This document shows, one piece after another, positions 26,984-64,000 of a DNA stretch of 64,000 nt (position 1 is its first letter; each line of letters begins with the position of its first letter). The stretch is from a virus (lineage: Duplodnaviria > Caudoviricetes). Where the stretch lies: positions 2,085 to 66,084 of IMG/VR virus record IMGVR_UViG_3300025769_000005; one strand, 5' to 3'. The translations under genes and the position numbers were made by a program. The notes beneath the pieces were generated by a model, which was given only the letters and a program-made list of their open reading frames with translations, was not told where the DNA came from and searched no databases.

Positions 26984-27850
26984 ATGCCAGCAATAGCAGC
27001 GATAGGAGCAGCAGTAAAAATAGGTGGAGCTATCTTTGGAGCAGGAAGAGCTAAACGAGAAGCTAGACGACAAAGAAAAAGAGCAAGAGCCTTAAACAAA
27101 AAAATAAATCATTTAGAAGCAAATAGACAAGATGTCATAAATCCTTATGATCAAGTAACAAGTTTAGCTAGTATGGCTACAGACTTGTCTAGCACCATGT
27201 CTAACCCTATGGCTAATTTATCTGTTGCAACAAAAGCTGCTGAAATGAAAATTGAACAAGCTGATATATCTTTAGCAAATACTTTAGATACATTAAGGGC
27301 TACAGGGTCTGGAGCTGGTGGAGCAACTGCTTTAGCACAAGCTGCTTTACAAAGTAAAAAAGGCGTTGCTGCTAGCATAGAAGGTCAAGAAAAAGCTAAC
27401 GAAGATAAAAGAGCAGCTGGTGAAGAAAGACTAGAACAAAGAGTTGCTGCAGAAAAACAAAGAATACAACGTATTAACATTAGCGAAGGCGCAAGAGAAC
27501 AACAAGCTATGGCGCAAGGTAGAGCATTTGAATTCCAAGCTCAAGAAAGTAGAGATAATACTAAACTAAGTAGATTGTACGGGCAACAACAACAAGCTCA
27601 AGGAGCTGCCGCTGCTGCTAGACAATCAGAAACTTCAGCAATTATGGGTGGTATAAATGCTTTAGGTGGCGCTATTGGTAGTGGTGCTTTTGGTGGTTTA
27701 GGTGGTGGAGGAAATAACCCTGTAGATAACATGTCTGAAAGCGCTGTATTAAATAGAATAACTCAAGATCCAGGTGGTGTTGGTGTTGAAGATATGAACG
27801 CTGAAGATTTAGGATTAGTATTAGATGAAAACGGTGATATGATTGATTAA
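26984..27850 (+). CDS. Internal virion/ejection protein
   Basis: Ala/Gly/Gln-rich helical protein with glycine-zipper termini. Confidence 0.6.
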   Translation: MPAIAAIGAAVKIGGAIFGAGRAKREARRQRKRARALNKKINHLEANRQDVINPYDQVTSLASMATDLSSTMSNPMANLSVATKAAEMKIEQADISLANTLDTLRATGSGAGGATALAQAALQSKKGVAASIEGQEKANEDKRAAGEERLEQRVAAEKQRIQRINISEGAREQQAMAQGRAFEFQAQESRDNTKLSRLYGQQQQAQGAAAAARQSETSAIMGGINALGGAIGSGAFGGLGGGGNNPVDNMSESAVLNRITQDPGGVGVEDMNAEDLGLVLDENGDMID

Positions 27851-27853
27851 ATT

Positions 27854-28957
27854 ATGGATAAAATAAAAAACATACAAAAGAATTTATTGATTAAGCAAAT
27901 TAATCAAAGTGATGCTATAGCTTATAATAAAAGCTTTTTGCAAAATCCAGTTGACTCTAATTTTAATGTATTACGAGCTTTTGAAGGTACAGAAAAAGAA
28001 TACGCTAGATTAGAACTTGCTATTAAAGATGGCAAATGTGAAGAACAGGGTTGTCAAATGGAAATGGATAGATTACAGTATCTAACTAATGCTCCTACTA
28101 TATTTATGGATTTTATGGAAAATGTTATGGGTGAGCTTTCTGTTACTGATGAAGAAAACTTTGATCCTAATAACAATGCTGATTACACTATAGCAAATTG
28201 CATGTTAAATGATAGACCAGGTTTTACTAAAACATCTGGTTACGATATTGAACTTAGATTATTAGGCGATGGATCACAACAACTAACATTTACTGGTCCT
28301 GGTTTTTATGAGCCATTAATATTAAATAGCTCTAGCTTACAAATATTATTAGAAAGTGGAACTTTTTTAATTGCATCAACACCTAATATAGGTAAGATGA
28401 TGTCTAGATTATTAACTGAAGTAAATGTATTTAGCCCTGAAATGGTAAATGCTGAAACAGAAGAGTTAATGCCTAATGCTAAAATAAGTGAAGAGTTTAT
28501 TGTGATGACACCACAAGGTGATTTTGATTATCAAATAATAGACATAGGCGGTGGTAAAGGTAGAAACGTACTTAGATACGATATGGATAAAATAGAAAGA
28601 AAAGTAACTCCATTTATAAACGCTGAAGTTGCTGGTATTTTAGATAGTGAACAAGAAGCTGTAGCTGCTTGGAACATGTATATAAGCAAAGGCACTAGTG
28701 ATGAAGAAGACGATCAAATGGTACAAGACGCTAACGCTTACGGATCTAGTTGGTCATACGAAACTGACCTACCATTATCACAAGATAAAAAAGTTTTATT
28801 CATGAAAAAATATAAAGAGTATTTTATGAAAAACTATTTAGTACAGTTCACAACTAATCAATTACCTAGCGTACAAGCTGACGCTGCTGTATTTGATATG
28901 GCTGAAATTAAAAAAGCTAAAGCACAAAAATTTGCAGAAGAAAACCCAGTAAAATAA
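27854..28957 (+). CDS. Acidic hypothetical protein, possible ejection protein
   Basis: Lies between an ejection-like gene and the giant gene. Confidence 0.5.
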   Translation: MDKIKNIQKNLLIKQINQSDAIAYNKSFLQNPVDSNFNVLRAFEGTEKEYARLELAIKDGKCEEQGCQMEMDRLQYLTNAPTIFMDFMENVMGELSVTDEENFDPNNNADYTIANCMLNDRPGFTKTSGYDIELRLLGDGSQQLTFTGPGFYEPLILNSSSLQILLESGTFLIASTPNIGKMMSRLLTEVNVFSPEMVNAETEELMPNAKISEEFIVMTPQGDFDYQIIDIGGGKGRNVLRYDMDKIERKVTPFINAEVAGILDSEQEAVAAWNMYISKGTSDEEDDQMVQDANAYGSSWSYETDLPLSQDKKVLFMKKYKEYFMKNYLVQFTTNQLPSVQADAAVFDMAEIKKAKAQKFAEENPVK

Positions 28958-28963
28958 AATTAA

Positions 28964-31900
28964 ATGACTAGAGAAGAATTTATAGAATCATTAGACGAGT
29001 CATTATCTTACAATGCTAAACAAAAACTTTTAGCTCAGTGGGATATTGACAATCCTCAAACTGAACAAGTTGTTGAAGAAGTAAAGATAGACGTTGTTGC
29101 GGATCCAGTGGATGCAACTGTAGCAACGAAACCGGAAAATGCATCCGAGATAAAAGATACGGAATTAGAATCGGAGAATGGTTCTTTGGAGTCACAAGAA
29201 ATATATCAACCGTATTATATTCTAAGTAACGATAAAACAGTTAGTAATACTTTTGATATTATAAATCAAAGAACTAAAAGATATGTTGACCAAAAAAACA
29301 TTACTAAAGAATATTTAGATAGAATTAGCGGTAAAATAGCGCCAAATAGTTTGTTGATTGAAGAAGGAAAAAAACAAAAAGAATTTTCACTAGAAAAAAC
29401 CTTAGATTACAACGAAGATTATTATAATCAAAATCAATCATCTGAAAAAATAAAACCAATAATAGATACTAGGTTTAAAACAAAAGTAGATCCTTTAGGT
29501 TTAAACAAAGATTCTAAAGAAGAAAACAAAGTTGATTTATTTAATGAAATTCTTAAAGAAGAAGAAAAAAGAGTTTTAAATGAAGACACTTTTATAAACT
29601 ATGTTGATGGTTTTATAGAAGAAAATGATTTAGATATACCTTTGCCATATTTGTATTTTAATCCAAAAAAACAAACTGGCTTTATAGATCAATATTACGG
29701 TGGAACAAAAGTTTTAGAAGAATTTGGAATAAACACTGTTGACTTTGAGGGTTTTTTAACATCAAATGGTTATGCAGAAGATTTCTTAAATGCTATTGAC
29801 TCTGGTGAATACGATCAGCAAGGTGGTGATTTAGCTAAAGAAAGAGACTTAGAAGGTTATTTAAATTTTTATACTAGAATAATGGATTCTAGATTAAATC
29901 AAAACAAAAAACTTGATTTAATTAAAGAAGATTTAAAAGGAGAAAACAAAGTAGAAATATTTGGTTCAGCACAAGAAAATCTAAAAAAAGCTCTTAAAGA
30001 TTTTAAACCTGGGGACGCTTCTTATACTTTATTCGATCAAAGTTTAATGAAAGAATATAAACAGTCTAAGTTTAAACTTGCGGCAGATAAAGATAAAGAA
30101 TATCAATTAGCTAGAATTAAATACGCAAAAGAACTAGACAAAAGATCAGATGCTATGTCTGCTGCTGCAAACATAGGTCAAATGCTTGTAGAATCAGGAA
30201 AAGGTCTTTACCAAGGTTTTGAAGATTTATTTGATTTTGGTCTTAAAATAGCGGGCTTTGATGATTCGCTGGCTATTTCTCAAAACTTAAGAATGGAAGA
30301 AGAAAGAGCTAAAGATAATTCTTATTTTTTAAGTATAACAGGTAAAACTATAGAAAAATACGCTAAAGACGATGATGGTAATTTCTTATTAGATAAAAAC
30401 GGTGAAAAAATTAAAATAGTTTATGCTAAAGATTCTGATACTGGTCAAATATACAATGTAACTAAAGGCTATAATATGGGTGGTATTATAGATGCTTTTG
30501 AATTAAAAATGTTAAATGATGAAATAGAAAAATCTGATAGAATTGAAGATCATTATTCTGCTAGAGGTTTTTTAACTACAGGAGGAAATGTAGTTGGAAA
30601 TGTAATGTCTCAGGTTATAGGACAAAAAGGTGTAGGATACTTAACAAATGCTGTTAAGCTAAAAACTCTTGCCGCTGCTAATGGTTTTACTTCGATAAAA
30701 AAATATAAAAACATACGTGATCTGAGTGTTGCTGTTGGAGGGAAAGCACCTACTAGAATACCTGTTAAAAAATCTGTAGTAGATGCTATGTTATTTCAAT
30801 CAACATACGGGGGAGCTATAGGTTACAAACAAACTTTAGATTCAGCAAAACAAGCTGGTTTTACAAATGCAGAGGCAGAGGCTTTAGCTTCTTCAGCCTC
30901 ACAAAACATGGCGGTTTGGTATGCTGCAACTGGCCCATTAAACACTAGAACTGGATGGTTAGATGGAACTCTAGGTAAATTAGGAATAAATAGAATAGTT
31001 AATTCATCTATTTTAGCTGCTAGAAAAGAATCACAAAAAGCTAGCACAAATGCTTTTTTAAATAAATCCTTTACAAAAAACTTACAACTTAGATTATCTA
31101 ACTTGTCAACAAAATTAGCTAACAATGGTATAGTTTTTGTTAAAGAAGGTTCTAAAGAATTTGTTCAAGAAAACACTCAGCAAGCTGGAGAGTATTTGTG
31201 GATAAATAAAACGTTAAACATGAAGACAGGTATAAATTTTCTTAAAGATACTTATACTGACAATGATATAAAATCAACATCTATACTTTCTTTTGTTACC
31301 GGTGGCTTACTTTCACAAATGCAAGTGCCTAATTTTAAACCTAACTCTGCTGCTCAAGTAGATAATTACATTTATATTGCAAATAATAGCAATGACGCAG
31401 AGATAGAATTAAATAAATTAGTAGAATCTGGTTTAGCAACTCAAGAAGAAGCTGATCAAATAATGAAAAACGCTCAAGCAATTTATAACAATGCAGCTTC
31501 AATACCCGCTTGGATGCTTGAAACAGATTTTGTGCTAGAATCTAGTCTTTTACTTCAAGAAAAAAAAGATATAGAATTAAGAAAAAAGAAAACTGACCCA
31601 GCTTTTCACGGTCCTGATAATGATAAATTACAAGAAATTGACAACAAGTTAAAAGAAATTAACCTTGAGGCTTTAGCTTCTACAGACGCAGCTGCTGCTG
31701 TAGAAAAAGATGTTGAAAGCGTAACTAAGATTGTTGGTGAAGAAAACATAGAAACATTTGATACTACTGAAAAGTGGAAAGCTAGATTAGATGAATTAGA
31801 TATACCAGATGGTTACGATGCAGATGCTTTGTTCCATGAAAAAGATGGCAAAATATATATTAACAAACAAAGAGCCGCTGAAGTAGAAGCTGTAACGGCA

Positions 31901-34900
31901 GCTAATCACGAGTTATTACATAAAATAACAGCTTCTTTATTTAACGATCCTGAAAAAGGTAAAGAATTAGTAGAAAAATTTAAGAAAATATTGAGTCCGT
32001 CTGAAATGAAAGTAGTACAAAAACGTATTGACGACAATTATAAATTTAAAAGAGATGATGATGGTAATATTTTATTAGACGAAGACGGTAAAAAAATTGA
32101 AAATGACGAATCTACTTATGACAAAGAATGGTTTACAGCTTTTTCTGATGCGTTAGGTAAAAAAGAAATTAATTGGTCAGATAATTTAGGTGAAAGTTTT
32201 TTAAGATTAAAAGATAAATTTTTAAATGTATTTAAAGAAAAAGGTTTTGAAAATGCTGATTTTAAAACAGGTAGAGATATTTACAACTTTATAAGAGACT
32301 ATTCTTATAACATGAGAAAAGGAAAAGGCATTGACTCTAAAGCTAAAGCTTTATTAAAGGCTCCTGTTATACTTTCTAAAGAAGTTTCTTTATCACAAAC
32401 AGCCTCAGATAAAGTACAAAATATATTTGACAATCAAGGAACTGATGGAACTTTTGAAATTATAAAAGAATATGAAGGTATGGCTAATAAAATAGCTAAT
32501 AAATACCAAGATGTTCCTGGTTTTGATAGACAACTACTTGTTGATGAAATATTAACAGGTAGGCGTGGTGTTTTAGATATGATTAGTGAGTACGATCCTG
32601 CTACCAATGTGCCTCTTGCTGCTTATATAAACAAATATTTAAGATCTAGAGCGATAGAAGCTGCTAATAGAATATTAAAACAAGAGTTTGAAACTGATGT
32701 AACAGAGGCTAAAGGTGTTGTAGCAGAAGAAACTAAACAACCAGAAGTCGTTAGTAGAAAAGTTAAAAAACCTAGCGAAACTACAGGTTTTGATAAAGCT
32801 ACTGAAACTAGAATTGATGAAGCTGTAAGTGAAAATTTTAAAGGCAATGACGTTAAGTTTTCAGATACTAAAAACGTTCCTAAAGAAGTAGCAAATGTGT
32901 ACGCAGAAAAGCTAGGTCTTAATCCACAAACAATTACAGATAAAACAAGAAATTACTCTAAAAAAGACGCACAAGGTTTAACTAAAGCAAAACAATTTTT
33001 ACTTAAAAACGCTAAAGATGATTATGCTCGTTTACCTAAATTAAAAGATGACTTTGGTAAAGGTACTTTTGTTCCTAAAAACGTTAAAGATGCTTTATAT
33101 ACTGATGGTAAATTAACAGGTAGTTTAAAAGACTACATTAATCTTATTAGAGAAAAGCCAATTAAACCTATATACAGAGATCGCGTAGGTCAAACTATTA
33201 GAGGTTTATTAAACTTAGCTATTAGAAATCGTATGCTTGAAACAGCACAACCCTCACGAGCTAAAAGATTACAATCAGGGGCTTTATTTAGCAGATCGAC
33301 TTACGGTATTTTTGATTTAAAATTAAAAGGCACGTTAAAAGTAAATACTCTTTTAACAGGGAAAGGTTTAAAAAAATCTTTAGACTTTAAAACTTTAGTA
33401 AATACTCCAGAGGGAAGAGAAGAAATAATAAAAACTTTTAAAAATGAAGTTGTTGTCCTTGGACCAAAAGAGATGTGGATGGGTAAGCGTGGTGCAAACG
33501 TATTTACTACAAGTGGTGCTGATTGGGGTATAAGCATGTCCCCTACAATAACAAGAGGACCTAATAAAGGAAAACCAAATCCTAGATATGATAAAAAGAA
33601 AGCAGATGCACTTACTGAATTAAGAAAAGGTTTTAACAAAATGCTTAATGACAAGAAAACTAAATTTGGCAAACCTATTACCTACAAGGATGCAAATGGT
33701 AATACAAAAACTTTAACTGATTTTACATTATCTTCTTATGGAACTATTTTTAAAGGCGCGCCTGAAGAAATAAAAAGCAAATCAAAAAAGTTTAATACTA
33801 AAACAGGAGCTATACACAAAGCTCTATGGAGTCGCATTGCAGAAAGAATTAAAAAAGACAAAAAACGAGCTCCAGCTATAGCTTCTTATTTAAAATTAGT
33901 AGCTAATCACACTGGTCACTGGCACAAATTAGGTGCTCAAATTTGGGGTTACTCACCTAAACCAAGAGGGAAAAACGGTACTTTGTACGAATATGAACAT
34001 GCTATGCCAGCAACGGCAGCATATTTATACCTACTAGACAACGCTATTAATAATTTTGGTTCCAGTAAAAGTAATTTTAATAAAGCTTATAAATTAGTAA
34101 TAAAAAATTATAAGCTTATTGCTTTAGACGCGTCTCAAAATGCTAAACTTGGACTAGCTAGACTAGGTAGAACAATGCCTCAAGGCTGGAATTTAATAGA
34201 CAATTTTTGGTGGCAAAGATATTTTAACGATAAAGTAGCGCAATTTAATGGTGGTATTGATCCTAGCTCTGTTGTAGATTTAGATGGTCAAACAATGGCA
34301 AATGTTTTTAAAATAAAAGCCAACGGTCAACCAACTACTGAATCTTTAATTAACGAAGCAAAAACTGCAGTTACTTTAAATGATAATACTTTTGGAGATA
34401 AGTCTTCATTTAGCAAAACAACAATTGGCCAAATACAAAACTTAAGTAATTATGACAAAGCTGCTAAAAAAGCTAGAAGTTTAAATACAACTGAAAGAGG
34501 TATTAGCGTGTTTGATTTTGATGACACATTAGCTAGAACTAAAAGTAAAGTTATAGTAACTATGCCTAATGGCAAAACATTTAAAATAGACGCTACAGAG
34601 TTTGCAAAAAATTCTGTAACACTAGAAGAGCAAGGCGCTAAATTTAATTTTGATGAATTTAATAAAGTTATTGATGGTAAAAAAGGACCACTAGCAGATC
34701 TTGCTTTAAAACGTCAAGGTAAATTTGGCAGCCAAAATATATTTGTGTTAACAGCTAGACCACAACTTGCCGCCGAAGGTATAAAAGCTTTTTTAGATGG
34801 TATAGGTTTAAATTTACCGTTAAGTAATATTACAGGATTAGAAGACGGATCACCGCAAGCTAAAGCTAACTGGATTGTAAGTAAAGCCGCTGAAGGTTAT

Positions 34901-37162
34901 AATGATTTTTATTTTGCAGATGACGCTATCAAAAACGTTAAAGCGGTTAAAGAAGTTTTAGATCAGGTGGATGTCAAATCTAAAGTGCAACAAGCTATTT
35001 TTAGTAAAACTAAAACTTTTGATAAAATTATAAATGATATTCTTGAAAGTGGCACAGGTATAAAATCTGAAGCTAAGTTTTCTAAAGCAAGAGCACAAAC
35101 AGTTGGAGCTGGTAAAGGCAAGTTTACTTTCTTTACAACACCATCAGCAGAAGACTTTGTAGGTTTAATATATAAGTTTATAGGTAAAGGAAAAGTTGGT
35201 GATGCGCAGTTACAGTTTTTTCAAGATAATTTAATTGATCCTTATAATAGAGCAGAGCAAGCCGTAACTAGAGCTAAGATAACTGCTGCTAATGATTTTA
35301 AAGCACTTAAAAACAGTCTTAAGACGTTACCTAAGTCATTATCTAAGAAAACAGGTATTGGAGGGTTTACGTTTGGTCAAGCTGCTAGAGTTGCAGTGTG
35401 GACAAGACAAGGTGTGGAAGTTCCTGGTCTATCTAAAAGAGACGCAAAAGAATTAAACGCTTTTATAGATAATAATGCTGAGCTTGATGTTTTTGTAGAT
35501 GAATTAATAAACATACAAAAAGGTAAACCATATCCTAAACCTAGTCAAACTTGGTTAGCTGGTAATATAACATCGGATATTGTTAACGAAATAAATAAAG
35601 TTAACAGAAAAGAATACATGCAAGAGTTTAATGAAAATATTGATATAATATTCTCAGACAAAGTTATGAATAAGCTTGAAGCTGCATACGGTCCTAAATA
35701 TGTAGAAGCTTTGCGTGATATTATTCGTAGAATGAAGTCAGGTTCTAATAGACCTGTAGGTAATTCAAGAATTGTAGATGGATTACTAAACTGGTTAAAT
35801 AATTCTGTTGGTGCTATAATGTTCTTAAACACAAGATCTGCAGTGTTACAAACTATATCTGCAGTAAACTTTATAAACTTTGGTAACAATAATCTTTTAG
35901 CTGCTGGCAAAGCATTTGCTAATCAAAAGCAATATTGGAAAGACTTTATGACATTATTTAATTCACCTTACTTAGTTGAAAGACGTGATGGATTAAAGAT
36001 CAATGTTAGTGAATCTGAAATAGCAGATGCTGTAGCAGAAAGTTCTAATAAACCAAAAGCATTTTTAAACCTATTACTTAGCAAAGGTTTTGTTCTTACA
36101 AGATTTGCAGATAGTTTTGCTATTGCGGCTGGTGGTTCTACATTTTATAGAAATCAAGTTGCTGCTTATGTTAAAGGTGGTATGGATCAAAAAGCTGCAG
36201 AAAAACAAGCGTTTGATGATTTCTACGCTATTGCAGAAGAAAGTCAGCAGTCAAGTAATCCAAGCAAAATATCACAACAACAAGCATCAGGTGCTGGTCG
36301 TGTGATACTAGCTTTTGCTAATACGCCAATGCAATATGCTCGTATAATAAAAAGATCTAGTCAAGATCTTGTAAATGGTAGAGGTGATTGGAAAACTAAT
36401 GTTTCTAAAATAGTGTACTACGGAGCAATGCAAAACCTTATATTTAACGCGTTGTCTAACGCTTTATTTGCTTTAGCTTTTGACGAAGAAGATGAAGAAC
36501 AAGAAGATAAAACAGGTAGAATAGCAAATGGTATGGCTGATTCATTATTAAGGGGTCTTGGTATACGAGGCGCTGCTGTTTCCGCTGTTAAAGACGCTTT
36601 AATAACTGTATATGAAGAAGAAAACAAAGAAAAAGGCGCGCCTGAACTTAGAAAAGCTATAACTGATCTATTTGGTTTTTCACCACCACTTGATTCTAAA
36701 ATTAGAAAACTAACAAGTGGTCTTAATACATTATCATGGGAACGTGAAAAAATGAATCAAGAAGGTTTTAACTTAAACAACCCTGCTTATTTAGCTTTTG
36801 CTCAAGTAATTTCTGGTTTAACAAACGTACCATTAGATAGAGCAATAACAAAGATAAATAACTTAAGAGCTGTAACAAGTGATAGTTCTGATAAATGGCA
36901 AAAAGTTGCCTTATTAATGGGTTGGTCAGCTTGGGATCTTGGTTTACCATATTATGGTGTTGAAGACAAAGTAGAGATGACACCGCAAATGATACTTAAA
37001 GAAAAGGTAAACAAAATGAAAAAAGAAACTAGCACTAAACAACAAAAAGAAACGTTGTTAAAGCTAGGACTAACTAAGCAACAAATAAAAGCTTTAAAAT
37101 ACGAAGAAGCAAGAGTTAAAAAAATAATTGAACTACAAGAAAAAAAAGATGGTAAAAATTAA
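28964..37162 (+). CDS. Giant polyvalent (probably ejected) protein: zincin HExxH, sigma70 region 2/4-like and HAD phosphatase domains
   Basis: NHELLH (~31907); GVLDMISEYDPATNVPLAAYINKYLRSRAI (~32570); DFDDTL..TAR..K..FADD (~34510-34930). Confidence 0.75.
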   Translation: MTREEFIESLDESLSYNAKQKLLAQWDIDNPQTEQVVEEVKIDVVADPVDATVATKPENASEIKDTELESENGSLESQEIYQPYYILSNDKTVSNTFDIINQRTKRYVDQKNITKEYLDRISGKIAPNSLLIEEGKKQKEFSLEKTLDYNEDYYNQNQSSEKIKPIIDTRFKTKVDPLGLNKDSKEENKVDLFNEILKEEEKRVLNEDTFINYVDGFIEENDLDIPLPYLYFNPKKQTGFIDQYYGGTKVLEEFGINTVDFEGFLTSNGYAEDFLNAIDSGEYDQQGGDLAKERDLEGYLNFYTRIMDSRLNQNKKLDLIKEDLKGENKVEIFGSAQENLKKALKDFKPGDASYTLFDQSLMKEYKQSKFKLAADKDKEYQLARIKYAKELDKRSDAMSAAANIGQMLVESGKGLYQGFEDLFDFGLKIAGFDDSLAISQNLRMEEERAKDNSYFLSITGKTIEKYAKDDDGNFLLDKNGEKIKIVYAKDSDTGQIYNVTKGYNMGGIIDAFELKMLNDEIEKSDRIEDHYSARGFLTTGGNVVGNVMSQVIGQKGVGYLTNAVKLKTLAAANGFTSIKKYKNIRDLSVAVGGKAPTRIPVKKSVVDAMLFQSTYGGAIGYKQTLDSAKQAGFTNAEAEALASSASQNMAVWYAATGPLNTRTGWLDGTLGKLGINRIVNSSILAARKESQKASTNAFLNKSFTKNLQLRLSNLSTKLANNGIVFVKEGSKEFVQENTQQAGEYLWINKTLNMKTGINFLKDTYTDNDIKSTSILSFVTGGLLSQMQVPNFKPNSAAQVDNYIYIANNSNDAEIELNKLVESGLATQEEADQIMKNAQAIYNNAASIPAWMLETDFVLESSLLLQEKKDIELRKKKTDPAFHGPDNDKLQEIDNKLKEINLEALASTDAAAAVEKDVESVTKIVGEENIETFDTTEKWKARLDELDIPDGYDADALFHEKDGKIYINKQRAAEVEAVTAANHELLHKITASLFNDPEKGKELVEKFKKILSPSEMKVVQKRIDDNYKFKRDDDGNILLDEDGKKIENDESTYDKEWFTAFSDALGKKEINWSDNLGESFLRLKDKFLNVFKEKGFENADFKTGRDIYNFIRDYSYNMRKGKGIDSKAKALLKAPVILSKEVSLSQTASDKVQNIFDNQGTDGTFEIIKEYEGMANKIANKYQDVPGFDRQLLVDEILTGRRGVLDMISEYDPATNVPLAAYINKYLRSRAIEAANRILKQEFETDVTEAKGVVAEETKQPEVVSRKVKKPSETTGFDKATETRIDEAVSENFKGNDVKFSDTKNVPKEVANVYAEKLGLNPQTITDKTRNYSKKDAQGLTKAKQFLLKNAKDDYARLPKLKDDFGKGTFVPKNVKDALYTDGKLTGSLKDYINLIREKPIKPIYRDRVGQTIRGLLNLAIRNRMLETAQPSRAKRLQSGALFSRSTYGIFDLKLKGTLKVNTLLTGKGLKKSLDFKTLVNTPEGREEIIKTFKNEVVVLGPKEMWMGKRGANVFTTSGADWGISMSPTITRGPNKGKPNPRYDKKKADALTELRKGFNKMLNDKKTKFGKPITYKDANGNTKTLTDFTLSSYGTIFKGAPEEIKSKSKKFNTKTGAIHKALWSRIAERIKKDKKRAPAIASYLKLVANHTGHWHKLGAQIWGYSPKPRGKNGTLYEYEHAMPATAAYLYLLDNAINNFGSSKSNFNKAYKLVIKNYKLIALDASQNAKLGLARLGRTMPQGWNLIDNFWWQRYFNDKVAQFNGGIDPSSVVDLDGQTMANVFKIKANGQPTTESLINEAKTAVTLNDNTFGDKSSFSKTTIGQIQNLSNYDKAAKKARSLNTTERGISVFDFDDTLARTKSKVIVTMPNGKTFKIDATEFAKNSVTLEEQGAKFNFDEFNKVIDGKKGPLADLALKRQGKFGSQNIFVLTARPQLAAEGIKAFLDGIGLNLPLSNITGLEDGSPQAKANWIVSKAAEGYNDFYFADDAIKNVKAVKEVLDQVDVKSKVQQAIFSKTKTFDKIINDILESGTGIKSEAKFSKARAQTVGAGKGKFTFFTTPSAEDFVGLIYKFIGKGKVGDAQLQFFQDNLIDPYNRAEQAVTRAKITAANDFKALKNSLKTLPKSLSKKTGIGGFTFGQAARVAVWTRQGVEVPGLSKRDAKELNAFIDNNAELDVFVDELINIQKGKPYPKPSQTWLAGNITSDIVNEINKVNRKEYMQEFNENIDIIFSDKVMNKLEAAYGPKYVEALRDIIRRMKSGSNRPVGNSRIVDGLLNWLNNSVGAIMFLNTRSAVLQTISAVNFINFGNNNLLAAGKAFANQKQYWKDFMTLFNSPYLVERRDGLKINVSESEIADAVAESSNKPKAFLNLLLSKGFVLTRFADSFAIAAGGSTFYRNQVAAYVKGGMDQKAAEKQAFDDFYAIAEESQQSSNPSKISQQQASGAGRVILAFANTPMQYARIIKRSSQDLVNGRGDWKTNVSKIVYYGAMQNLIFNALSNALFALAFDEEDEEQEDKTGRIANGMADSLLRGLGIRGAAVSAVKDALITVYEEENKEKGAPELRKAITDLFGFSPPLDSKIRKLTSGLNTLSWEREKMNQEGFNLNNPAYLAFAQVISGLTNVPLDRAITKINNLRAVTSDSSDKWQKVALLMGWSAWDLGLPYYGVEDKVEMTPQMILKEKVNKMKKETSTKQQKETLLKLGLTKQQIKALKYEEARVKKIIELQEKKDGKN
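30578..30629 (+). repeat. Exact 52-bp direct repeat, copy 2
   Basis: Identical to 7921-7972 and encodes the same peptide, TGGNVVGNVMSQVIGQK. Confidence 0.95.
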
Positions 37163-52815: not shown

Positions 52816-53667
52816 CTACTCATAGTTTCTGATGCATTTGTAAAATGGATGTCTGTAACTACCAGCTTTAGTACGTTCGAAATATGTAAACGTTGCTGTT
52901 TGGCCTATGTAGTCATGAATGTTGTTTTGTATATCAGCTAGATCTTTGTAAGTAAAGCCTTTGCCTGGTGGACAACCGAACTTAACACCTTGATCGTCCA
53001 TCATAAAGAACTTACCTAGTGTACCTTCGCGCTTGCCTTTACCTGCTTCATAGCCTACAATTGTAGCTTCAGCATCGTGAAAGTCTTTGAACTTTTGTAA
53101 GTTGTAAGAACGTTTGCACTGATAAGGACCGTCAAGACGTAAGATAGAACCTTCGTAACCTTGAGGTAGAAAAGCATTGTGATGTAAGTCTAAAGCTTCT
53201 TCGTGCTTGTTAACTAGATACGATGGCACATAGCGTACAGAATCTGTATACATATCGCTTGTACATAATTGATCCATTCTGTAACTGTATGGCATATTCA
53301 TCACTGTTTCTACATAGTCATAGCAATGAAACTGTACTAGTTTTGCTGCTTCAGATCTGTCATCGTCTGTAGGTTTTTGTTTACGAACAAGAGATATAAT
53401 CTTTTCGAAGTCGTCACGTAGATCGTGGTTGTATAATTCACCATCGAGCACTACGTCAGGATGTATTTCGAAGAAATATTCTAGATCTTCTAGTATGTGC
53501 GCAATGTTGAGCCACGGTTTACCTGTACGAGAGTATGCATATACTTCGCCTTTGTCATTAAGTTGGATTAGACAACGTACGCCGTCAAGTTTTGGTTGCA
53601 TGTAGACTTTTTTAGTCCAGTCGACTGGTTTTGAGTCAACTTTGTATGCGAGCATTGGTTTTATCAT
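52816..53667 (-). CDS. lig: ATP-dependent DNA ligase
   Basis: QPKLDGVR, LDGELY, EGSILR, LQKFK motifs. Confidence 0.93.
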   Translation of the reverse strand: MIKPMLAYKVDSKPVDWTKKVYMQPKLDGVRCLIQLNDKGEVYAYSRTGKPWLNIAHILEDLEYFFEIHPDVVLDGELYNHDLRDDFEKIISLVRKQKPTDDDRSEAAKLVQFHCYDYVETVMNMPYSYRMDQLCTSDMYTDSVRYVPSYLVNKHEEALDLHHNAFLPQGYEGSILRLDGPYQCKRSYNLQKFKDFHDAEATIVGYEAGKGKREGTLGKFFMMDDQGVKFGCPPGKGFTYKDLADIQNNIHDYIGQTATFTYFERTKAGSYRHPFYKCIRNYE

Positions 53668-55162: not shown

Positions 55163-55176
55163 ATTATTGTTTATTA

Positions 55177-55209
55177 TATTATCCAACTGTTATTGTATTT
55201 TGTTTGTAA
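55177..55209 (-). promoter_or_regulatory. Early promoter-like motif, copy 2
   Basis: TTACAAACA-N15-TGGATAATA. Confidence 0.75.
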
Positions 55210-55293
55210 CTAGATGAGGAATCGAACCTCAATACTCGTCAGTAGTCGCATATAGAGCACCTCTTTTTAGAACTATATAAACCATACCTAGTT
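55207..55293 (-). ncRNA. tRNA-like RNA B (87 nt, no D-stem)
   Basis: AACUAGG/UCUAGUU acceptor stem plus A; T-arm UGAGG-UUCGAUU-CCUCA; UAUGGU linker; two internal hairpins. Confidence 0.6.
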
Positions 55294-55433
55294 AGTCAGC
55301 TAGTTAGTGTGACTATTGTCTCCTATTTCTAGCATGTGCTAGCAATTCAGTTATGTGATTAGGTACCATTTATCGTGGTATCTTTGCGGCATTCGCCCAC
55401 CTAACCCTAATTAACCTACTCGTCTAGCAATGT

Positions 55434-55462
55434 GCTCACCTTTGCTTTCGCCGCGGTTGAGC
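55434..55462 (-). repeat. Hairpin module CAACCGCGGCGAAAGCAAAGGUG, copy closed by GCU/AGC
   Basis: 55437-55459 identical to 55840-55862. Confidence 0.85.
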
Positions 55463-55616
55463 TAACTCCATTCTTGGAGCATTATAATTGCCATATCTTT
55501 TATGGACTTCATTTCTTCATCAGTTAGATCATTATAGTTTACTATACGTTCTAACGCGTGTTCTATTGTGTCTATTAAATAGCAAGCTTCACGCTCTACT
55601 ATTTCCATTTCTTGTT

Positions 55617-55796
55617 TTATTCCGCTATCCATGTTAATCCTTTATAGTTAAACCAATTTGAAATACCTGCTTGTTCTTTTTCTTCATTATATATAAAGCC
55701 AAATGTTGGAAGTAATTCGCCTACAGCATAACCTTTATACTTTAGACCTTCGCTAGTTTTAGCGGTAGTTTTTGATGTGAATTTTATTCTTTGCAT
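55617..55796 (-). CDS. 59-aa hypothetical protein
   Basis: MQRIKFTSK...KGLTWIAE; directly after tRNA-like RNA A; not in the ORF track. Confidence 0.55.
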   Translation of the reverse strand: MQRIKFTSKTTAKTSEGLKYKGYAVGELLPTFGFIYNEEKEQAGISNWFNYKGLTWIAE

Positions 55797-55809
55797 ATTT
55801 ATTATTTAG

Positions 55810-55882
55810 TGGACGTGGCAGGATTCGAACCTGCGTTGACACCTTTGCTTTCGCCGCGGTTGTCGCTTACCATTTCACGCCC
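55810..55882 (-). ncRNA. tRNA-like RNA A (73 nt), resembling the tRNA-like domain of tmRNA
   Basis: GGGCGUG/CACGUCC acceptor with G3:U70 and A73; AAAUGGUAAGCGAC 5' loop; T-arm GCAGG-UUCGAAU-CCUGC. Confidence 0.7.
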
Positions 55883-55885
55883 ATT

Positions 55886-55964
55886 TACCACCTGTCACTA
55901 CGACTGGCTTTGTACAACTGATACCTTAAGGAAGCCAAGGCGTCGGTTTACTGTTAGGGTGGTA
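55886..55964 (-). ncRNA. Long interrupted hairpin in the leader of RNA A
   Basis: Nested stems UACCACC/GGUGGUA, CGAC/GUCG, UGGCUU/AAGCCA. Confidence 0.45.
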
Positions 55965-56153
55965 TTATTTTCTACGCCATGCTTTGTGTACTGCTGCAGA
56001 TAGTTCTTGTGATACTATTTGTAGCTCGAGCACTTGTTTGTTACCGATAATTGGTATATAACTATAAAGCTCGGTTGTGCTACAATTGACACAGGTTCTA
56101 TAACCTAAGGCTAATCGACCTTGAGGAATTACATTTGTACATTTACATTTCAT
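55965..56153 (-). CDS. TraR/DksA-type C4 zinc-finger protein
   Basis: CKC...IPQGRLALGYRTCVNC. Confidence 0.6.
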   Translation of the reverse strand: MKCKCTNVIPQGRLALGYRTCVNCSTTELYSYIPIIGNKQVLELQIVSQELSAAVHKAWRRK

Positions 56154-56168
56154 ATTGTTTGTTTATTA

Positions 56169-56201
56169 TATTATCCAATAATTATTGTATTTTGTTTGTA
56201 A
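56169..56201 (-). promoter_or_regulatory. Early promoter-like motif, copy 3
   Basis: TTACAAACA-N15-TGGATAATA. Confidence 0.75.
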
Positions 56202-56389
56202 TTGAGTCATTATAAGTGTTCATCATTACATACATCTCATCCCAGCTATGATCTTTGTAGCAAGATGCGCAAAAACCTACGTCATATACTTTAACTTTAA
56301 CAGTTTTTTCAACTATTATAGGATTACCTTGTCCTAACTTATAACAACTATATGACAATAGAGCTATAAGTATTGATAGTTTTATATAT

Positions 56390-56668
56390 TTAGAAGCAGA
56401 CATAACATTCGCCTTTGTTACCATATTTTTCCCATTCTTCATGGTTGCTACCATCACAAGTTAATTCATTTGTAATAGTATGCTTAAAACCTTCAGCTTC
56501 ACCTTGACATATCCATTCTTTTATCTTTTCAGTGTAATTATCAGGGTGATATTTAACGTCTAGCTTTATTACATCATCATTATGACCTGTGCATTTCTTG
56601 TAACACACTTTGTCATCTACTTGTCCTGTTAAGGATATCGCTAGCGCGATAGCTAGATTAGTAACCAT
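56390..56668 (-). CDS. Cys-containing protein with a signal-peptide-like N-terminus
   Basis: MVTNLAIALAISLTG, then six Cys. Confidence 0.5.
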   Translation of the reverse strand: MVTNLAIALAISLTGQVDDKVCYKKCTGHNDDVIKLDVKYHPDNYTEKIKEWICQGEAEGFKHTITNELTCDGSNHEEWEKYGNKGECYVCF

Positions 56669-56846
56669 TTATAGATTCATTGTTTACTATTCTTTCTACG
56701 TCTTGCCATTGATACCAATCCATGTCATGATCACTTAGTTTATTTAAGATTTCAGTTCTTTTTTGTTCTTTACCATTTGTGTTACCTGCGAAGTAACCAC
56801 CGATAAATACTAAGCACGCTAGTGCAATTGTTTTCTTTTTGTCCAT
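56658..56846 (-). CDS. Small membrane-anchored early protein
   Basis: N-terminal hydrophobic helix. Confidence 0.5.
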   Translation of the reverse strand: MDKKKTIALACLVFIGGYFAGNTNGKEQKRTEILNKLSDHDMDWYQWQDVERIVNNESINGY

Positions 56847-56848
56847 AT

Positions 56849-57037
56849 TTAAAATTTATTTGTCATTAATTTATTTATTACGAGTGTCATTACATAGTCA
56901 TGAGCATCATGCAGCTCATCACCTTCAAAATCAAAATCGCTGTATGCTAATTCAGTATTGATTGTATTATATATTTTGTGTAGTATTTGAGGAACTAGCT
57001 TGTTAGCCATTTCATCGAGTTGTTTCATTTTTGCCAT
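56849..57037 (-). CDS. Small early protein
   Basis: ORF coupled to neighbours. Confidence 0.5.
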   Translation of the reverse strand: MAKMKQLDEMANKLVPQILHKIYNTINTELAYSDFDFEGDELHDAHDYVMTLVINKLMTNKF

Positions 57038-57243
57038 TAGTCACCTGTGTAATTAGTTGGGTTATTATTATACATGCTTTGCATTGCTTTGTCATGTAAT
57101 ACTTTGATTTCTTTGTAATACTCTGCGTTTGGTACATTGTCATCTCGCCACTGCATTACACTGTTGTAATCTGGGCTAGTAAATGATATGTTATCAATAC
57201 TGCAAGTATATAATTCTTGTGATTTATGTTTTATTATTTTCAT
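57037..57243 (-). CDS. Small early protein
   Basis: ATG just downstream of promoter copy 4. Confidence 0.55.
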   Translation of the reverse strand: MKIIKHKSQELYTCSIDNISFTSPDYNSVMQWRDDNVPNAEYYKEIKVLHDKAMQSMYNNNPTNYTGD

Positions 57244-57250
57244 ATATTAT

Positions 57251-57283
57251 TATTATCCATTTAACATTTGATTTTGTTTGTAA
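57251..57283 (-). promoter_or_regulatory. Early promoter-like motif, copy 4
   Basis: TTACAAACA-N15-TGGATAATA. Confidence 0.75.
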
Positions 57284-57525
57284 TTATTATACTTTAACCA
57301 GTATGCTCTTTCCATTGCTTCTATCTGTTGTTTACTTATTTTAAACAGTGGATCTCTTTGTCTTGCTTTTGCAAATCTATACAAATCTTTTTTCATATTA
57401 TACATTGTTTATTAGTTTCTATTATACCTAAGACATCTTGTCTTGTTAGTATTCCTTCACTTTGAAGATTTATTATGTGAGTCATATCAATCACTGTATT
57501 ATTTATTGTTTGAGTTATTATCATA

Positions 57526-57696
57526 TTATTGTATTGTATCTACTAGCATATTTAACTCATCAAATAGATTACCATAAGGTGAATCATATACATTATCTAG
57601 TGTGAATGTTTTGCCATTGATTGTTAATTCATATAAGTCATTGTCATCATCTACTAGACATTGAATAAAGAATGCTTTTTGTATTTTTGTTATCAT
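57526..57696 (-). CDS. Small acidic early protein
   Basis: Likely start MITKIQK at 57696, after tRNA-like RNA C. Confidence 0.5.
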   Translation of the reverse strand: MITKIQKAFFIQCLVDDDNDLYELTINGKTFTLDNVYDSPYGNLFDELNMLVDTIQ

Positions 57697-57710
57697 AGTT
57701 ATTATATTAG

Positions 57711-57751
57711 TTGACATAGTGAGAATCGAACTCACATTAACCATTATGTCA
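57711..57751 (-). ncRNA. tRNA-like RNA C (41-nt minihelix with GG loop)
   Basis: UGACAUA-AUGGUUAAU-GUGAG-UUCGAUU-CUCAC-UAUGUCA-A; all 12 pairs Watson-Crick. Confidence 0.65.
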
Positions 57752-61340: not shown

Positions 61341-64000
61341 ATGGCATTAAAGTTTTTAAATGATGGATATTTCGCCGGCAAGGTAGGTATTGGAACTGAA
61401 AGTCCTACAGCTAAGTTACATGTTTCAACTGGGTCAAGCGGTGCTACTGTTTACTCAGGTTATAATGACATGGTAATAGAAGGAGGAAACGGGGCGTCGT
61501 TAAGTTTTTTAACACCGGATGCTAATCCTGTAGATATTAATTTTGGTACTCCATCAAGTCAATTTGCTGCTGGTATTAGAGCTGGATATAATAGTGGTAC
61601 AGAGTTTATTGCTTTTAAGGTAGTAGATAGTGAAAAAATGAGAATTATTGATACCGGTAATGTCGGTATTGGAACGATTAATCCTGGTGCTAAGTTAGAG
61701 GTTGCAGGTACTGGTGACTTATCTTTTAAAATAAATAACACACAATACAATAGGTCACTAATTATAGAACAAGGTGGTGGTTATTCACATTTAAAAGCAT
61801 CACATGTTTCAGGGATCGCTATTAATTACGGCCAAGGGAATCCTGGTATTCTTTCATTGTTTAACAACACAACACAAGCTGTAAAAATAAACACGAATGG
61901 TACTTCTTATTTAAATGGTGGCAACGTCGGTATCGGAACGACTAGCCCAGGAGAAAAACTAGATTTAGCTGGAACAAATGTAGGCGTTAAAATAAATGGA
62001 ACTCAATCTTCAAGAGTATACTACAACAGGTCAGGCACATATACTTGGTCTACAGGATTAAGATCAGGAGATACTAAATTTCATATTTTTGACGAAAGAA
62101 CTGGCGACAGAGTTATAATAGATGACGCAGGCAACGTCGGCATAGGGACGACTACACCTACGGCTAGGTTAGATGTAAGGTTATCTGCAGCAACAGGCAG
62201 AGTTGCTGAACTTCACAACAACACGGGTTATGGTATTGGATTTACCGTAGAAGGCGATGGGGGCGTTAATACTATAAATTCAGAAAGCAACCAAGCATTA
62301 GCGTTTGCAACAAATGGAGCATCAAATGAAAGAATGCGTATCACAACAGGCGGTAATGTTGGGATCGGGACGACTAGTCCTGATTATCAATTAGAAGTAG
62401 AAAACACAAGCGCACAAGCTACTGTTGGAATTACGGGAGGAAACACAGATGCAAGATTACATTTAAAAAATAACGAGGGTACTTGGCTAATTCAAAACGA
62501 CTATTCTAATACAGGTGCTTTAAGTTTTTACAATTCTACGCATAGAGTTGTTATAACAGAAGGCGGCAACGTCGGGATTGGTACTACTAGTCCTGTTTCT
62601 AGTTTAAATATAACAACTACCAAAACAGTTGCTCTTGATACAGCTGCTAAATTCTTAACGCTTGGTTTAACTGTAGACGATTTAACAGCGGGTAATACAG
62701 CAGGTGGTGGTGGTGGAATAGCTTTTAGATCTAAAAACACAAACGCAGGAACCCAAATAGTTTTCGGGGCAATTGATGCAATTAAAGAAAGCGCAAATGT
62801 TAGTGACTTTAGAGGTTCTTTAAGATTTTTTACAAATCAAAATTCAACGGGAATACCTTTAGAAAGAATGCGTATTGATTCTTCAGGCAACGTCGGGATC
62901 GGGACGGATAGTCCTAGTGGTATTCTTCACGTAAAAGGTTCAACTGATGATACGGTTGTTTACATAGATACCAATAATAATGCGTTAGGAGATTCTGCTA
63001 AAATAAGTTTTAACGATAGGGCGCAAGTTGGTTGGATAGACGCTGCAGTAACTTTAACAGATGGCGGAGGTAATAAGGATATTAAGTTAAAAGTAGCTAC
63101 AGGTTCTGTATTTGTTCAAACCAACAACACAACTAGACTTACTGTTGCAGACGGCGGCAACGTTGGTATTGGCACAACTTCACCTACAGCTAAATTACAC
63201 GTAGCAGGTACAGGATTATTTACAGGTTTAGTATCTGGTATAACACCAGTTGCTGCAGCTAACTTTGTAACTAAAGCTTATGTAGACGGATCAGGCGGTG
63301 GTACAGGACCTTTCTTACCACTGGCTGGTGGTACAATGACTGGAGTTGCTGGCGTTGTATTTCCTGATGCTTTCAAATTAAACTTAGGTACAGGTTCAGA
63401 CCTTGAAATATATCATAATGGATTAAGTGGTAATAATAATATAGACAATATAAATGGAGATTTATATATGTCTCAATACGCAAATGACAAAGATATTATT
63501 TTCAGAAGTGATAATGGTGGTGGAGGAATTGCTGAATATTTTAGATTAGATGGTAGTTTTGAAAAAACAGTATTTTCAAAAGATATTTTCTTGAATGATA
63601 GTGTAAAAGCTTTATTTGGAAATTCATCAGATTTACAAATATATCACAACGGAAGTAATAATATTAGCTTTATAACAAATTCAAACGCTGCAGGTCTTAG
63701 ATTACAATCAGATGAGCTTATAATTTTTGCAGCTAATGGAACTACTGCTCGTGCAGACTTTGATATTGCTGTTAAATTATTTTATAATGACTCTAAAAAG
63801 TTTGAAACCACAAACACAGGTGTTACTGTAACAGGTGCAGCTACTGCAACAACATTCTTAGGTGATTTAAACGGTACAATAAATACAGCAACTACGGCTG
63901 TAACAAAAGCAAACGCTACAAACGACACTACGGTAGCTACTACAGCCTTTGTACAAAACTTAATAGGTACAATACCTGCAGGTTTAGTATTTCAAGGTAC
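61341..64000 (+). CDS. Second GNVGIGT-repeat tail fibre, 3'-truncated by the window
   Basis: MALKFLNDGYFAGKVGIGT...; about 8 repeats; FLPLAGGTMTG; frame open at the window end, so absent from the ORF track. Confidence 0.85.
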   Translation, partial: MALKFLNDGYFAGKVGIGTESPTAKLHVSTGSSGATVYSGYNDMVIEGGNGASLSFLTPDANPVDINFGTPSSQFAAGIRAGYNSGTEFIAFKVVDSEKMRIIDTGNVGIGTINPGAKLEVAGTGDLSFKINNTQYNRSLIIEQGGGYSHLKASHVSGIAINYGQGNPGILSLFNNTTQAVKINTNGTSYLNGGNVGIGTTSPGEKLDLAGTNVGVKINGTQSSRVYYNRSGTYTWSTGLRSGDTKFHIFDERTGDRVIIDDAGNVGIGTTTPTARLDVRLSAATGRVAELHNNTGYGIGFTVEGDGGVNTINSESNQALAFATNGASNERMRITTGGNVGIGTTSPDYQLEVENTSAQATVGITGGNTDARLHLKNNEGTWLIQNDYSNTGALSFYNSTHRVVITEGGNVGIGTTSPVSSLNITTTKTVALDTAAKFLTLGLTVDDLTAGNTAGGGGGIAFRSKNTNAGTQIVFGAIDAIKESANVSDFRGSLRFFTNQNSTGIPLERMRIDSSGNVGIGTDSPSGILHVKGSTDDTVVYIDTNNNALGDSAKISFNDRAQVGWIDAAVTLTDGGGNKDIKLKVATGSVFVQTNNTTRLTVADGGNVGIGTTSPTAKLHVAGTGLFTGLVSGITPVAAANFVTKAYVDGSGGGTGPFLPLAGGTMTGVAGVVFPDAFKLNLGTGSDLEIYHNGLSGNNNIDNINGDLYMSQYANDKDIIFRSDNGGGGIAEYFRLDGSFEKTVFSKDIFLNDSVKALFGNSSDLQIYHNGSNNISFITNSNAAGLRLQSDELIIFAANGTTARADFDIAVKLFYNDSKKFETTNTGVTVTGAATATTFLGDLNGTINTATTAVTKANATNDTTVATTAFVQNLIGTIPAGLVFQG

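Follow-up and report, generated by a model that had tools for sequence, protein, structure and literature searches.

Three short intergenic elements, here called RNA A, RNA B and RNA C, lie on the minus strand of a 64,000-base stretch of phage DNA (the window from here on; positions 2,085 to 66,084 of the IMG/VR record IMGVR_UViG_3300025769_000005, which counts 66,084 bases, carries direct terminal repeats and is rated 100% complete). As judged from sequence comparison, the three are genes for small, anticodon-less RNAs shaped like transfer RNA (tRNA) that fall into three conserved families, and in every family selection is seen to keep the T-arm, the helix of the acceptor and the GG by which the elbow is closed. 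RNA A is, on the same grounds, a homologue of the tRNA-like domain (TLD) of transfer-messenger RNA (tmRNA), which has the P2 helix and lacks a tag reading frame and pseudoknots.

Identification of three families of tRNA-shaped RNAs

The original prediction had read A, B and C as members of one family built on a single plan, and the features that it named were all found in the sequence, on the minus strand. With canonical tRNAs the elements of the window share the 7-base-pair (bp) acceptor on a 5-bp T-stem, the T-loop UUCRANY and the elbow GG; the D-stem and the anticodon arm with its 7-nucleotide (nt) loop are not present (ARAGORN, Rfam tRNA model). The motif GTTCGAWTC occurs at three sites in the 64 kb, each of them the T-loop of A, B or C, where 0.41 were expected, and none of 100 shuffled sequences reached three. 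Minimum-free-energy folds (RNAfold) recovered the acceptor and the T-arm of all three, with z scores of -3.17 for A, -2.14 for C and -0.26 for B. A canonical tRNA or tmRNA gene was ruled out: as had been anticipated, ARAGORN called no tRNA or tmRNA in the window and Rfam gave no match at gathering thresholds. The tRNA model (RF00005) matched neither A nor B at E values up to 10.

Related loci (49) were gathered via a 543-amino-acid protein that adjoins the region. The window and its relatives (764 kb) were scanned for an acceptor of 7 bp combined with a linker that includes GG and a T-stem of 5 bp that closes a TTCRANN loop, which gave 19 matches, every one on the strand of the small, presumably early, genes, compared to 0-4 matches in the same scan of 20 mononucleotide shuffles. 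The 19 matches split into three sequence families that correspond one-to-one with A, B and C, and for each family separate orthologues are present in contigs of related, uncultivated phages. The proposal of a single family was thus not borne out, and the elements are three conserved genes rather than recent paralogues. A joint MAFFT alignment of A, B and C left the 5' ends unaligned, and the types were analyzed singly, with positions counted from the ends. The tools that gathered the orthologues (sequence patterns, pairing scans of our own and a covariance model) uniformly favor structure.

Several other origins of the signal were rejected. With respect to protein coding, the longest open reading frame (ORF) over C (57526..57744) takes the AUG within AUGGU as its start codon, and the downstream ATG at 57696 fits better; an ORF on the plus strand (55791..56003) overlaps A. 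Ten flanking small ORFs had no PHROG match, and four had no Pfam match at E values up to 1, so that coding finds no support in these results. A copy of a common host tRNA arm was rejected as well, given that the 17-nt T-arm of C occurred in only 2 of 301 genomes sampled from the phylum of genome G003 and was absent from the others searched.

RNA A, a predicted tag-less mini-tmRNA

RNA A (55807..55882, minus strand) was delineated on basis of sequence, Rfam alignment, fold and orthologues. Its acceptor pairs GGGCGUG (55876-55882) with CACGUCC (55811-55817) over 7 bp that include a G3.U70 wobble, and encloses a D-loop analogue with AA-AUGGU (55865-55875), a 27-nt bulged hairpin made up of P2 and a GAAA-capped hairpin (55838-55864), AAC (55835-55837) and the T-arm GCAGG-UUCGAAU-CCUGC (55818-55834); the discriminator A (55810) and CUA (55807-55809) follow. 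The predicted fold has an energy of -28 kcal/mol and shows P2 as a bulged helix of 6 bp. At a permissive threshold A matched the Rfam tmRNA model (RF00023) end to end (model positions 1-374) with 32.4 bits and an E value of 1.4e-10, 27 nt replacing 326, and its T-arm and stem-less, GG-bearing D-loop analogue, the latter joined to the P2 helix, aligned to the ends of the model. With bacterial tmRNA (SsrA) A shares G1-C72, G2-C71, G3.U70, A73, the D-loop analogue, P2, the T-arm and the acceptor 3' strand. Unlike it, A lacks the messenger-like domain (resume codon, tag frame and stop) and the pseudoknots, and it scores below the cut-off. Between the P2 strands there are just 27 nt, all hairpin, in which ARAGORN found no tag and which leave no room for PK1-PK4. 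The D-loop analogue reads AAAUGGUAAG in A, compared to ..GGUUUUGACAG in three chromosomal tmRNAs from the genomes behind Bacteroidetes-labelled loci.

The A family was collected with a pattern that covered the T-arm and the 3' strand ending in ACTA, and matched at least 119 viral stretches, with 114 distinct ...TCCACTA contexts among the matches listed, to which all counts for this family refer. ARAGORN called 13 of these contexts as tmRNAs and 12 as tRNAs and left 89 uncalled, and the size range has full phage tmRNAs (244-433 nt) at its upper end and uncalled forms of 65-130 nt at its lower end. Position 3 was left free, because the pattern fixed the 3' strand only. We found G3 opposite U70 in 73 of the 77 short uncalled forms with a 5' partner and A3 in the remaining 4; among the 11 ARAGORN-called tRNAs with a partner, 8 carried A3 and 3 carried G3. 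The G3:U70 pair is an established determinant for AlaRS, and A possesses both this pair and the discriminator A73, which B and C lack. Given that the wobble is kept although a Watson-Crick pair would be stronger, its retention points to selection for alanine identity. A P2 of at least five uninterrupted pairs was found in 71 of the 93 distinct sequences of the short A-type set, compared to 27% of shuffles, and was made from 66 different P2 sequences. Moreover, a real phage tmRNA of 244 nt (tag ANKNQFALAA) shares the acceptor GGGCGTG and the ACTA end with the window's A, so that an ACUA gene end is compatible with a working tmRNA.

The kind of molecule that A represents is already in print. In the part of their paper that was available, Hudson, Lau and Williams 2014 (PMC4131195) list Mycobacterium phage DS6A as having a TLD only, citing an entry of the tmRNA Website, and relate that a similar TLD-only molecule strongly inhibits tmRNA, perhaps via titration of SmpB. 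The original view that the elements belong to no described family therefore fails for A. Like the DS6A molecule it is a phage-borne tmRNA TLD alone, a likeness that is based on the description in PMC4131195 rather than on aligned sequences. Host phylum and phage type differ, and, to the extent that DS6A is described there, A is set apart by its large family with a covarying P2, its swappable modules, its two companion tRNA-like families and the absence of an encoded CCA. Whereas DS6A is, going by that part of the paper, the single phage example of a tag-less mini-tmRNA in print so far, we are dealing here with a large and diversified RNA family that is spread over environmental phages, with at least 73 distinct short G3:U70 forms (73 of the 114 distinct contexts, among the matches listed). 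If A titrates SmpB, many environmental phages would use an RNA of around 75 nt to shut down ribosome rescue or to divert it.

Instead of an inhibitor, A might be a working rescue RNA, tag-less or with a minimal tag, that frees ribosomes stalled on damaged phage mRNAs without marking for proteolysis. The retained alanine identity set fits such a role, as do the size continuum that links full phage tmRNAs (244-433 nt) to forms of 65 nt that share their ends (among the matches listed) and the stop triplets in several interior modules (e.g. UAACAGUAA in L004, L020, L178 and L090). However, the window's A offers no single-stranded template, the space between the P2 strands being taken up by the 27-nt hairpin. 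ARAGORN finds no tag in it, the sole tag call in an intermediate form (ERTEVYYIC, L154) is unlike known tags, and the experiment cited in PMC4131195 is described, in the part available, as inhibition by a TLD-only molecule and not as rescue. We consider a rescue function quite improbable.

A tandem arrangement was observed in L309 (contig C16 of G002, 56 kb, from the bin of a Bacteroidetes metagenome-assembled genome), where two A-type mini-tmRNAs follow each other at around 53388-53650, the first with an ACCA end and the second with an ACTA end. This contig is probably a phage contig or a prophage.

RNA B and RNA C

RNA B (55204..55293, minus strand; delineated by sequence, fold and 46 distinct orthologues) has an acceptor of 7 bp, AACUAGG (55287-55293) with UCUAGUU (55208-55214), including G7.U66. 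Between the strands lie the GG linker with U-AUGGU (55280-55286), two hairpins, of which the first is variable (55249-55279) and the second conserved (the extra hairpin UACU-GACG-AGUA, 55233-55244), and the T-arm UGAGG-UUCGAUU-CCUCA (55215-55231); the discriminator A (55207) and CAA (55204-55206) complete the element. The centroid structure keeps the acceptor, the 4-bp extra hairpin and the T-arm. A pattern on the T-arm and the 3' strand matched 57 viral stretches, which reduced to the 46 distinct sequences; since this pattern fixed both parts, their covariation cannot be judged. The family plan reads AACTAG(G), GG linker, variable interior, hairpin TAC(C/T)-GACG-(G/A)GTA, T-arm, CTAGTT and A, after which CAA follows in 32 sequences, CTA in 11 and CGA in 2. 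The acceptor usually has 6 pairs, the 7th pair (G.U) of the window being due to an extra U. The extra hairpin is kept in 43 of the 46 and occurs as TACC/GGTA in 28 and as TACT/AGTA in 12, which is a compensatory change.

Two observations on B stand by themselves. In L266 (10267-10386, plus strand) a B-type RNA carries an interior module of around 30 nt twice in tandem. In the window, CTAG occurs five times in the tract upstream of B (55294-55430, minus strand), and several of these copies could pair with B's 3' acceptor strand in place of the adjacent 5' strand; this alternative pairing would give much longer tRNA-like frames, of 203-209 nt in the window and of 213-230 nt in L030.

RNA C (57708..57751, minus strand; delineated by sequence, Rfam alignment, fold and 18 distinct orthologues) is a minimal tRNA-like RNA of 41 nt plus CUA. 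The acceptor UGACAUA/UAUGUCA (57745-57751 and 57712-57718) is followed immediately by AUGGU, within the linker AUGGUUAAU (57736-57744), and then by the T-arm GUGAG-UUCGAUU-CUCAC (57719-57735); the discriminator A is at 57711 and CUA at 57708-57710. At a permissive threshold C scored 21.7 bits with the Rfam tRNA model, where the cut-off is 29, and the D and anticodon arms were skipped. The covariance-model search of related phages that the original prediction had put forward was run for C and recovered further copies, and the resulting 18 distinct sequences were readily aligned. Neither the T-loop nor the linker GG varies (18/18), 94.9% of the cells in the pairing columns are paired, and 11 of the 12 pairs have changed on both sides. 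The covariation score was 0.548, compared to 0.183 with shuffled partners, and none of 500 shuffles reached 0.548; in a control in which the partners were slid by 1-3 columns, 25-51% of cells were paired. As the copies of C share flanking genes, their orthology is supported independently of the pairing-biased recruitment. B and C have no alanine identity, and for both of them, as for the conserved trio and the exchange of modules (see below), no published description was found in the literature searched, of which most subscription journals were not part.

The stems thus covary in C, in the extra hairpin of B and in P2 of A, which upholds the original view of structure-selected RNAs that have a tRNA elbow and lack a D-stem and an anticodon arm. 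This bears on the alternative that the elements are decaying remnants of tRNAs or tmRNAs, or fragments of attachment sites, and have no function now. Real tRNA-Met genes in the same region of the relatives L015 and L020 might have served as a source, and the window's A is rearranged compared to L004. Such remnants would nevertheless hardly show compensatory changes in 11 of 12 C pairs, in the extra hairpin of B and in P2 of A, or an invariant GG and T-loop in the C family, or dozens of distinct orthologues with conserved placement. Attachment-site fragments keep just the 3' part of a gene, and here both acceptor strands are present. On account of the covariation and the two strands, an attachment-site fragment or pseudogene was rejected (an integrase was not searched for), and we give very little credence to decay in general.

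An observation on recent change within C comes from two minus-strand loci with identical flanks, L008 (2244-2322) and L009 (153-196). These differ in one C-type RNA of 44 nt, by a 35-nt insert and a different T-stem, which is a recent internal replacement with the acceptor kept.

Gene ends and the machinery for processing

The ending C(U/A)A in place of CCA had been listed as part of the shared plan, and it turned out to be no distinguishing feature. All 28 ARAGORN-called tRNA genes in the loci of Cellulophaga phages phi38:1 (L061-L087) and phi13:2 and of Tenacibaculum phage Gundel_1 (L072-L086) have N73-C74 and then not CA, and three chromosomal tmRNA genes (from the genomes behind Bacteroidetes-labelled loci) end in ACCA, ACAA and ACTT. 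C(U/A)A is therefore a normal, CCA-less gene design with C74 encoded, and an encoded C74 without C75-A76 appears as the uniform gene end in these flavobacterial phages. The constancy of CUA is striking all the same, with 17 of 18 C sequences and 7 of 7 A-type copies that were recovered with a pattern leaving those two bases free. No SmpB or CCA-adding enzyme domain was found in the phage genome, so that host enzymes would have to act.

Exchangeable structured modules

The inserts had been described as modular, and this was confirmed: a small stock of structured modules, which pass from one frame to another and recur across phages, makes up the interiors of A and B and the adjoining ORF-free tracts. 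The 23-nt hairpin inside A (55840..55862, minus strand) has an exact second copy at 55437-55459, where no second copy is expected by chance (2 copies vs 0 expected). A contains this hairpin in the window, L185 and L201 (1 mismatch), and in the window and L004 it also lies upstream of B. Just upstream of A an 80-nt structured leader, module X (55883..55962, minus strand), was delimited from the alignment of the window with L004; its homologue sits inside the A-type RNA of L004, with a compensatory change from CGAC/GUCG to CGAG/CUCG.

A structured ORF-free tract, recognized from its fold and from relatives, leads into B (55294..55462, minus strand). Within it are the 23-nt hairpin at 55434-55462, a module that forms a three-way junction (~55345-55420) and another that forms a small hairpin (~55305-55340). 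The fold of 55207-55470 has an energy of -70.4 kcal/mol (z score -1.96). Some 97 nt of the sequence upstream of B have no counterpart in L004 and have a homologue in the distant L030 as well as within the A-type RNAs of L198, L206 and L177, and modules of the tract recur inside A-type RNAs of the same three loci and of L157, L216 and L202. The three-way junction in particular belongs to the interior of A in three loci (L198, L206 and L177), whereas in the window and L299 it precedes B, and the sequence of its second hairpin differs between copies. A further module, GGTGAGGGATCGTTATGAACTC, is part of the A-type RNAs of L209 and L135 and of the B-type RNA of L295.

Near-identical DNA is present in freshwater and marine metagenome runs. 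Part of the stretch is carried by 20 public runs from 14 studies, 6 of which are RNA libraries, and four of the runs (three RNA, one DNA) were compared with the window in the form of assembled contigs, not reads. These contigs revealed population variants that differ by whole modules, including one RNA-library contig that lacks module X (joint 55882->55965).

The recurrence of the modules raises the possibility that the frames of A and B are natural scaffolds for shuffled modules, and that the latter act as effectors, as decoys or regulators directed against host proteins of translation quality control or defense. We would call this possible in principle and unlikely. In the broader form in which the cargo modules are decoys, aptamers or antisense regulators, aimed for instance at host defense, and the frame provides excision and stability, it strikes us as similarly unlikely, perhaps slightly more so. 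It agrees with the appearance of the same modules (the 23-nt hairpin, GGTGAGGGATCGTTATGAACTC and the three-way junction) in different frames, with the duplicated module in one B (L266) and with the whole-module differences in populations, but no target is known for any module, the modules of the window have no match among Rfam families, and C, the minimal B (L277, 55 nt) and the minimal A (65-72 nt) are conserved while being almost free of cargo. Engineered tRNA scaffolds are man-made constructs in which a foreign structured RNA replaces the anticodon arm and is processed and stabilized by the cell, and the module swapping of A and B looks like their natural counterpart. If the frames do serve as module scaffolds, the locus would amount to a natural collection of small RNAs that bind proteins or act as regulators, in which RNA counter-measures evolve by cassette exchange.

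Arrangement in the genome

A, B and C are surrounded by small ORFs in a part of the genome, plausibly the early region, that is bounded by a divergence point near 58.5 kb on one side and by the genes for ligase, primase-helicase and ribonucleotide reductase on the other. Synteny was assessed over 219 loci, of which many are fragments; co-occurrence of A with C was seen in 36, of A with B in 18 and of all three in 7, always on one strand and in similar order. C is typically found 1.6-3.2 kb upstream of A, whereas the gap that separates B from A is often just 2-3 nt, like genes in a tRNA cluster (L246, L258 and L277). Each element follows a stop codon and is itself followed by an A/T-rich leader (11-26 nt) and the next ATG.

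This placement directly upstream of leaders and start codons, in intergenic gaps throughout, is what one would expect if the elements were nothing but cut sites for RNase P and RNase Z that divide a presumed early polycistronic RNA, the released RNAs having no function; the bare acceptor, T-arm and elbow of C would fit as well. A precedent is provided by plant mitochondria, whose polycistronic transcripts contain tRNA-like structures, the t-elements, which are said, in the available part of Forner et al. 2007 (PMC1920247), to define the 5' and 3' ends of mRNAs. The t-elements, as characterized there, are a working model for B and C, although they are organellar, unrelated in sequence and devoid of alanine identity, and although processing is documented for them and inferred for A, B and C. 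However, punctuation needs only the helices and the elbow. It leaves unexplained why 73 of 77 A forms (among the matches listed) have G3.U70 where A3-U70 would pair better, why P2 covaries and why structured modules are conserved within A and B, and it sits uneasily with the frequent adjacency of B and A without an intervening ORF. Pure punctuation thus seems possible, if on the doubtful side.

Upstream of A lies an ORF of 62 amino acids (55965-56153, minus strand) with a C-x-C ... C-x2-C pattern, which, judged by eye, may encode a TraR/DksA-type zinc finger; it had no Pfam or PHROG match. The ORF is conserved in 89 related loci, in 59 of which A is found within 400 nt downstream of it. In addition, an exact 18-nt repeat, TTGGATAATATAATAAAC, was observed at 55169-55186 and 56161-56178 (minus strand), preceded by ACAAACAAAATACAATAA and with around 20 nt more on the 5' side. 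One copy comes directly after B and the other after an ORF that ends near 56182, and the repeat looks like an extended -10 type promoter or another start signal for the next gene.

A possible mode of action

The reading that we favor, tentatively and with the scales not quite tipped towards it, is that the elements are conserved tRNA-like RNAs cut from a presumed early polycistronic transcript, with A interfering with trans-translation and B and C acting as processing scaffolds. Host RNase P would cut the 5' side of each element, and as the genes carry no CCA, completion of the 3' end would fall to RNase Z or exonucleases and to the CCA-adding enzyme of the host. Excision would free stable small RNAs and separate the flanking small mRNAs. 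Mature A may then be recognized by AlaRS and SmpB and compete with host tmRNA for SmpB, AlaRS or EF-Tu, which would damp or redirect trans-translation during infection, as has been proposed for the TLD-only tmRNA of DS6A. B and C, without alanine identity, would most likely be scaffolds for processing and stability, the B scaffold presumably carrying, like A, exchangeable structured modules. In this capacity B and C would be minimal natural substrates with which to define the requirements of RNase P, RNase Z and the CCA-adding enzyme in Bacteroidota.

Comparable tRNA-like RNAs that are cut from longer transcripts by tRNA-processing enzymes are the mascRNA of MALAT1 and the stable RNAs 'species 1 and 2' of the tRNA cluster of phage T4. 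The former is eukaryotic and the latter stem from a T-even phage, and both have fuller cloverleaf-like folds than A, B and C. The cut in MALAT1 also sets the 3' end of the upstream RNA, and a similar outcome is possible for the structured tract upstream of B.

A number of findings weigh against this reading and should be set beside it. The 32.4 bits of A are below the 47-bit gathering cut-off of the tmRNA model and ARAGORN makes no call, 4 of the 77 short A elements (among the matches listed) have lost G3:U70, and the window's A, with module X outside the acceptor frame, looks rearranged compared to L004 and is possibly a decaying copy. The fold energy of B is no better than that of shuffles, and most B orthologues, with 6 acceptor pairs, have a stack of 11 bp rather than 12, which is the canonical ruler length of the acceptor/T stack for RNase P and RNase Z. 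Ten of the 18 C sequences leave pair 7-66 unpaired, mostly as A.C, and as the recruitment tools reward pairing, the pairing percentages lean upwards. Finally, excision, CCA addition, charging and SmpB binding are all inferred steps, the RNA libraries being represented by contigs, which show neither RNA starts and ends nor the strand.

Relatives and host of the phage

The terminase is 64% identical to that of the uncultivated podovirus MW202828, 44% to those of the elemo group of Flavobacterium phages and 36-39% to those of Cellulophaga phages; given the latter identities, the host is probably a member of the Flavobacteriia. Within the phage collection that was searched, which may lack records close to the window, the 3.4-kb region and B had no match and A had two T-arm matches of 29-33 nt only, and the sequences of A, B and C were not found in the cultured terminase relatives (MW202828, elemo, phi13:2, phi38:1 and Gundel_1). 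Elsewhere in the window two large ORFs, one of 2732 amino acids (28964-37162, plus strand) and one of 1348 (21481-25527), had no Pfam match at an E value of 0.001.

The same cultured relatives hold tRNA clusters and some odd tRNA-like elements. In Cellulophaga phage phi13:2, one tRNA-like element (L060, record ~27790-27880, plus strand) combines a 7-bp acceptor, a T-arm and a U-CUA end with a disordered middle, and at L064 (record ~63320-63410, minus strand) a tRNA-Cys is followed within 30-70 nt by two T-loop motifs that are spaced too tightly for full tRNAs. In MW202828, the closest deposited relative, two adjoining odd tRNA-like genes are located just before a terminator-like hairpin (L058, record ~520-720, plus strand), one with a D-arm and a long interrupted inner stem and the other with a D-arm and without an anticodon arm.

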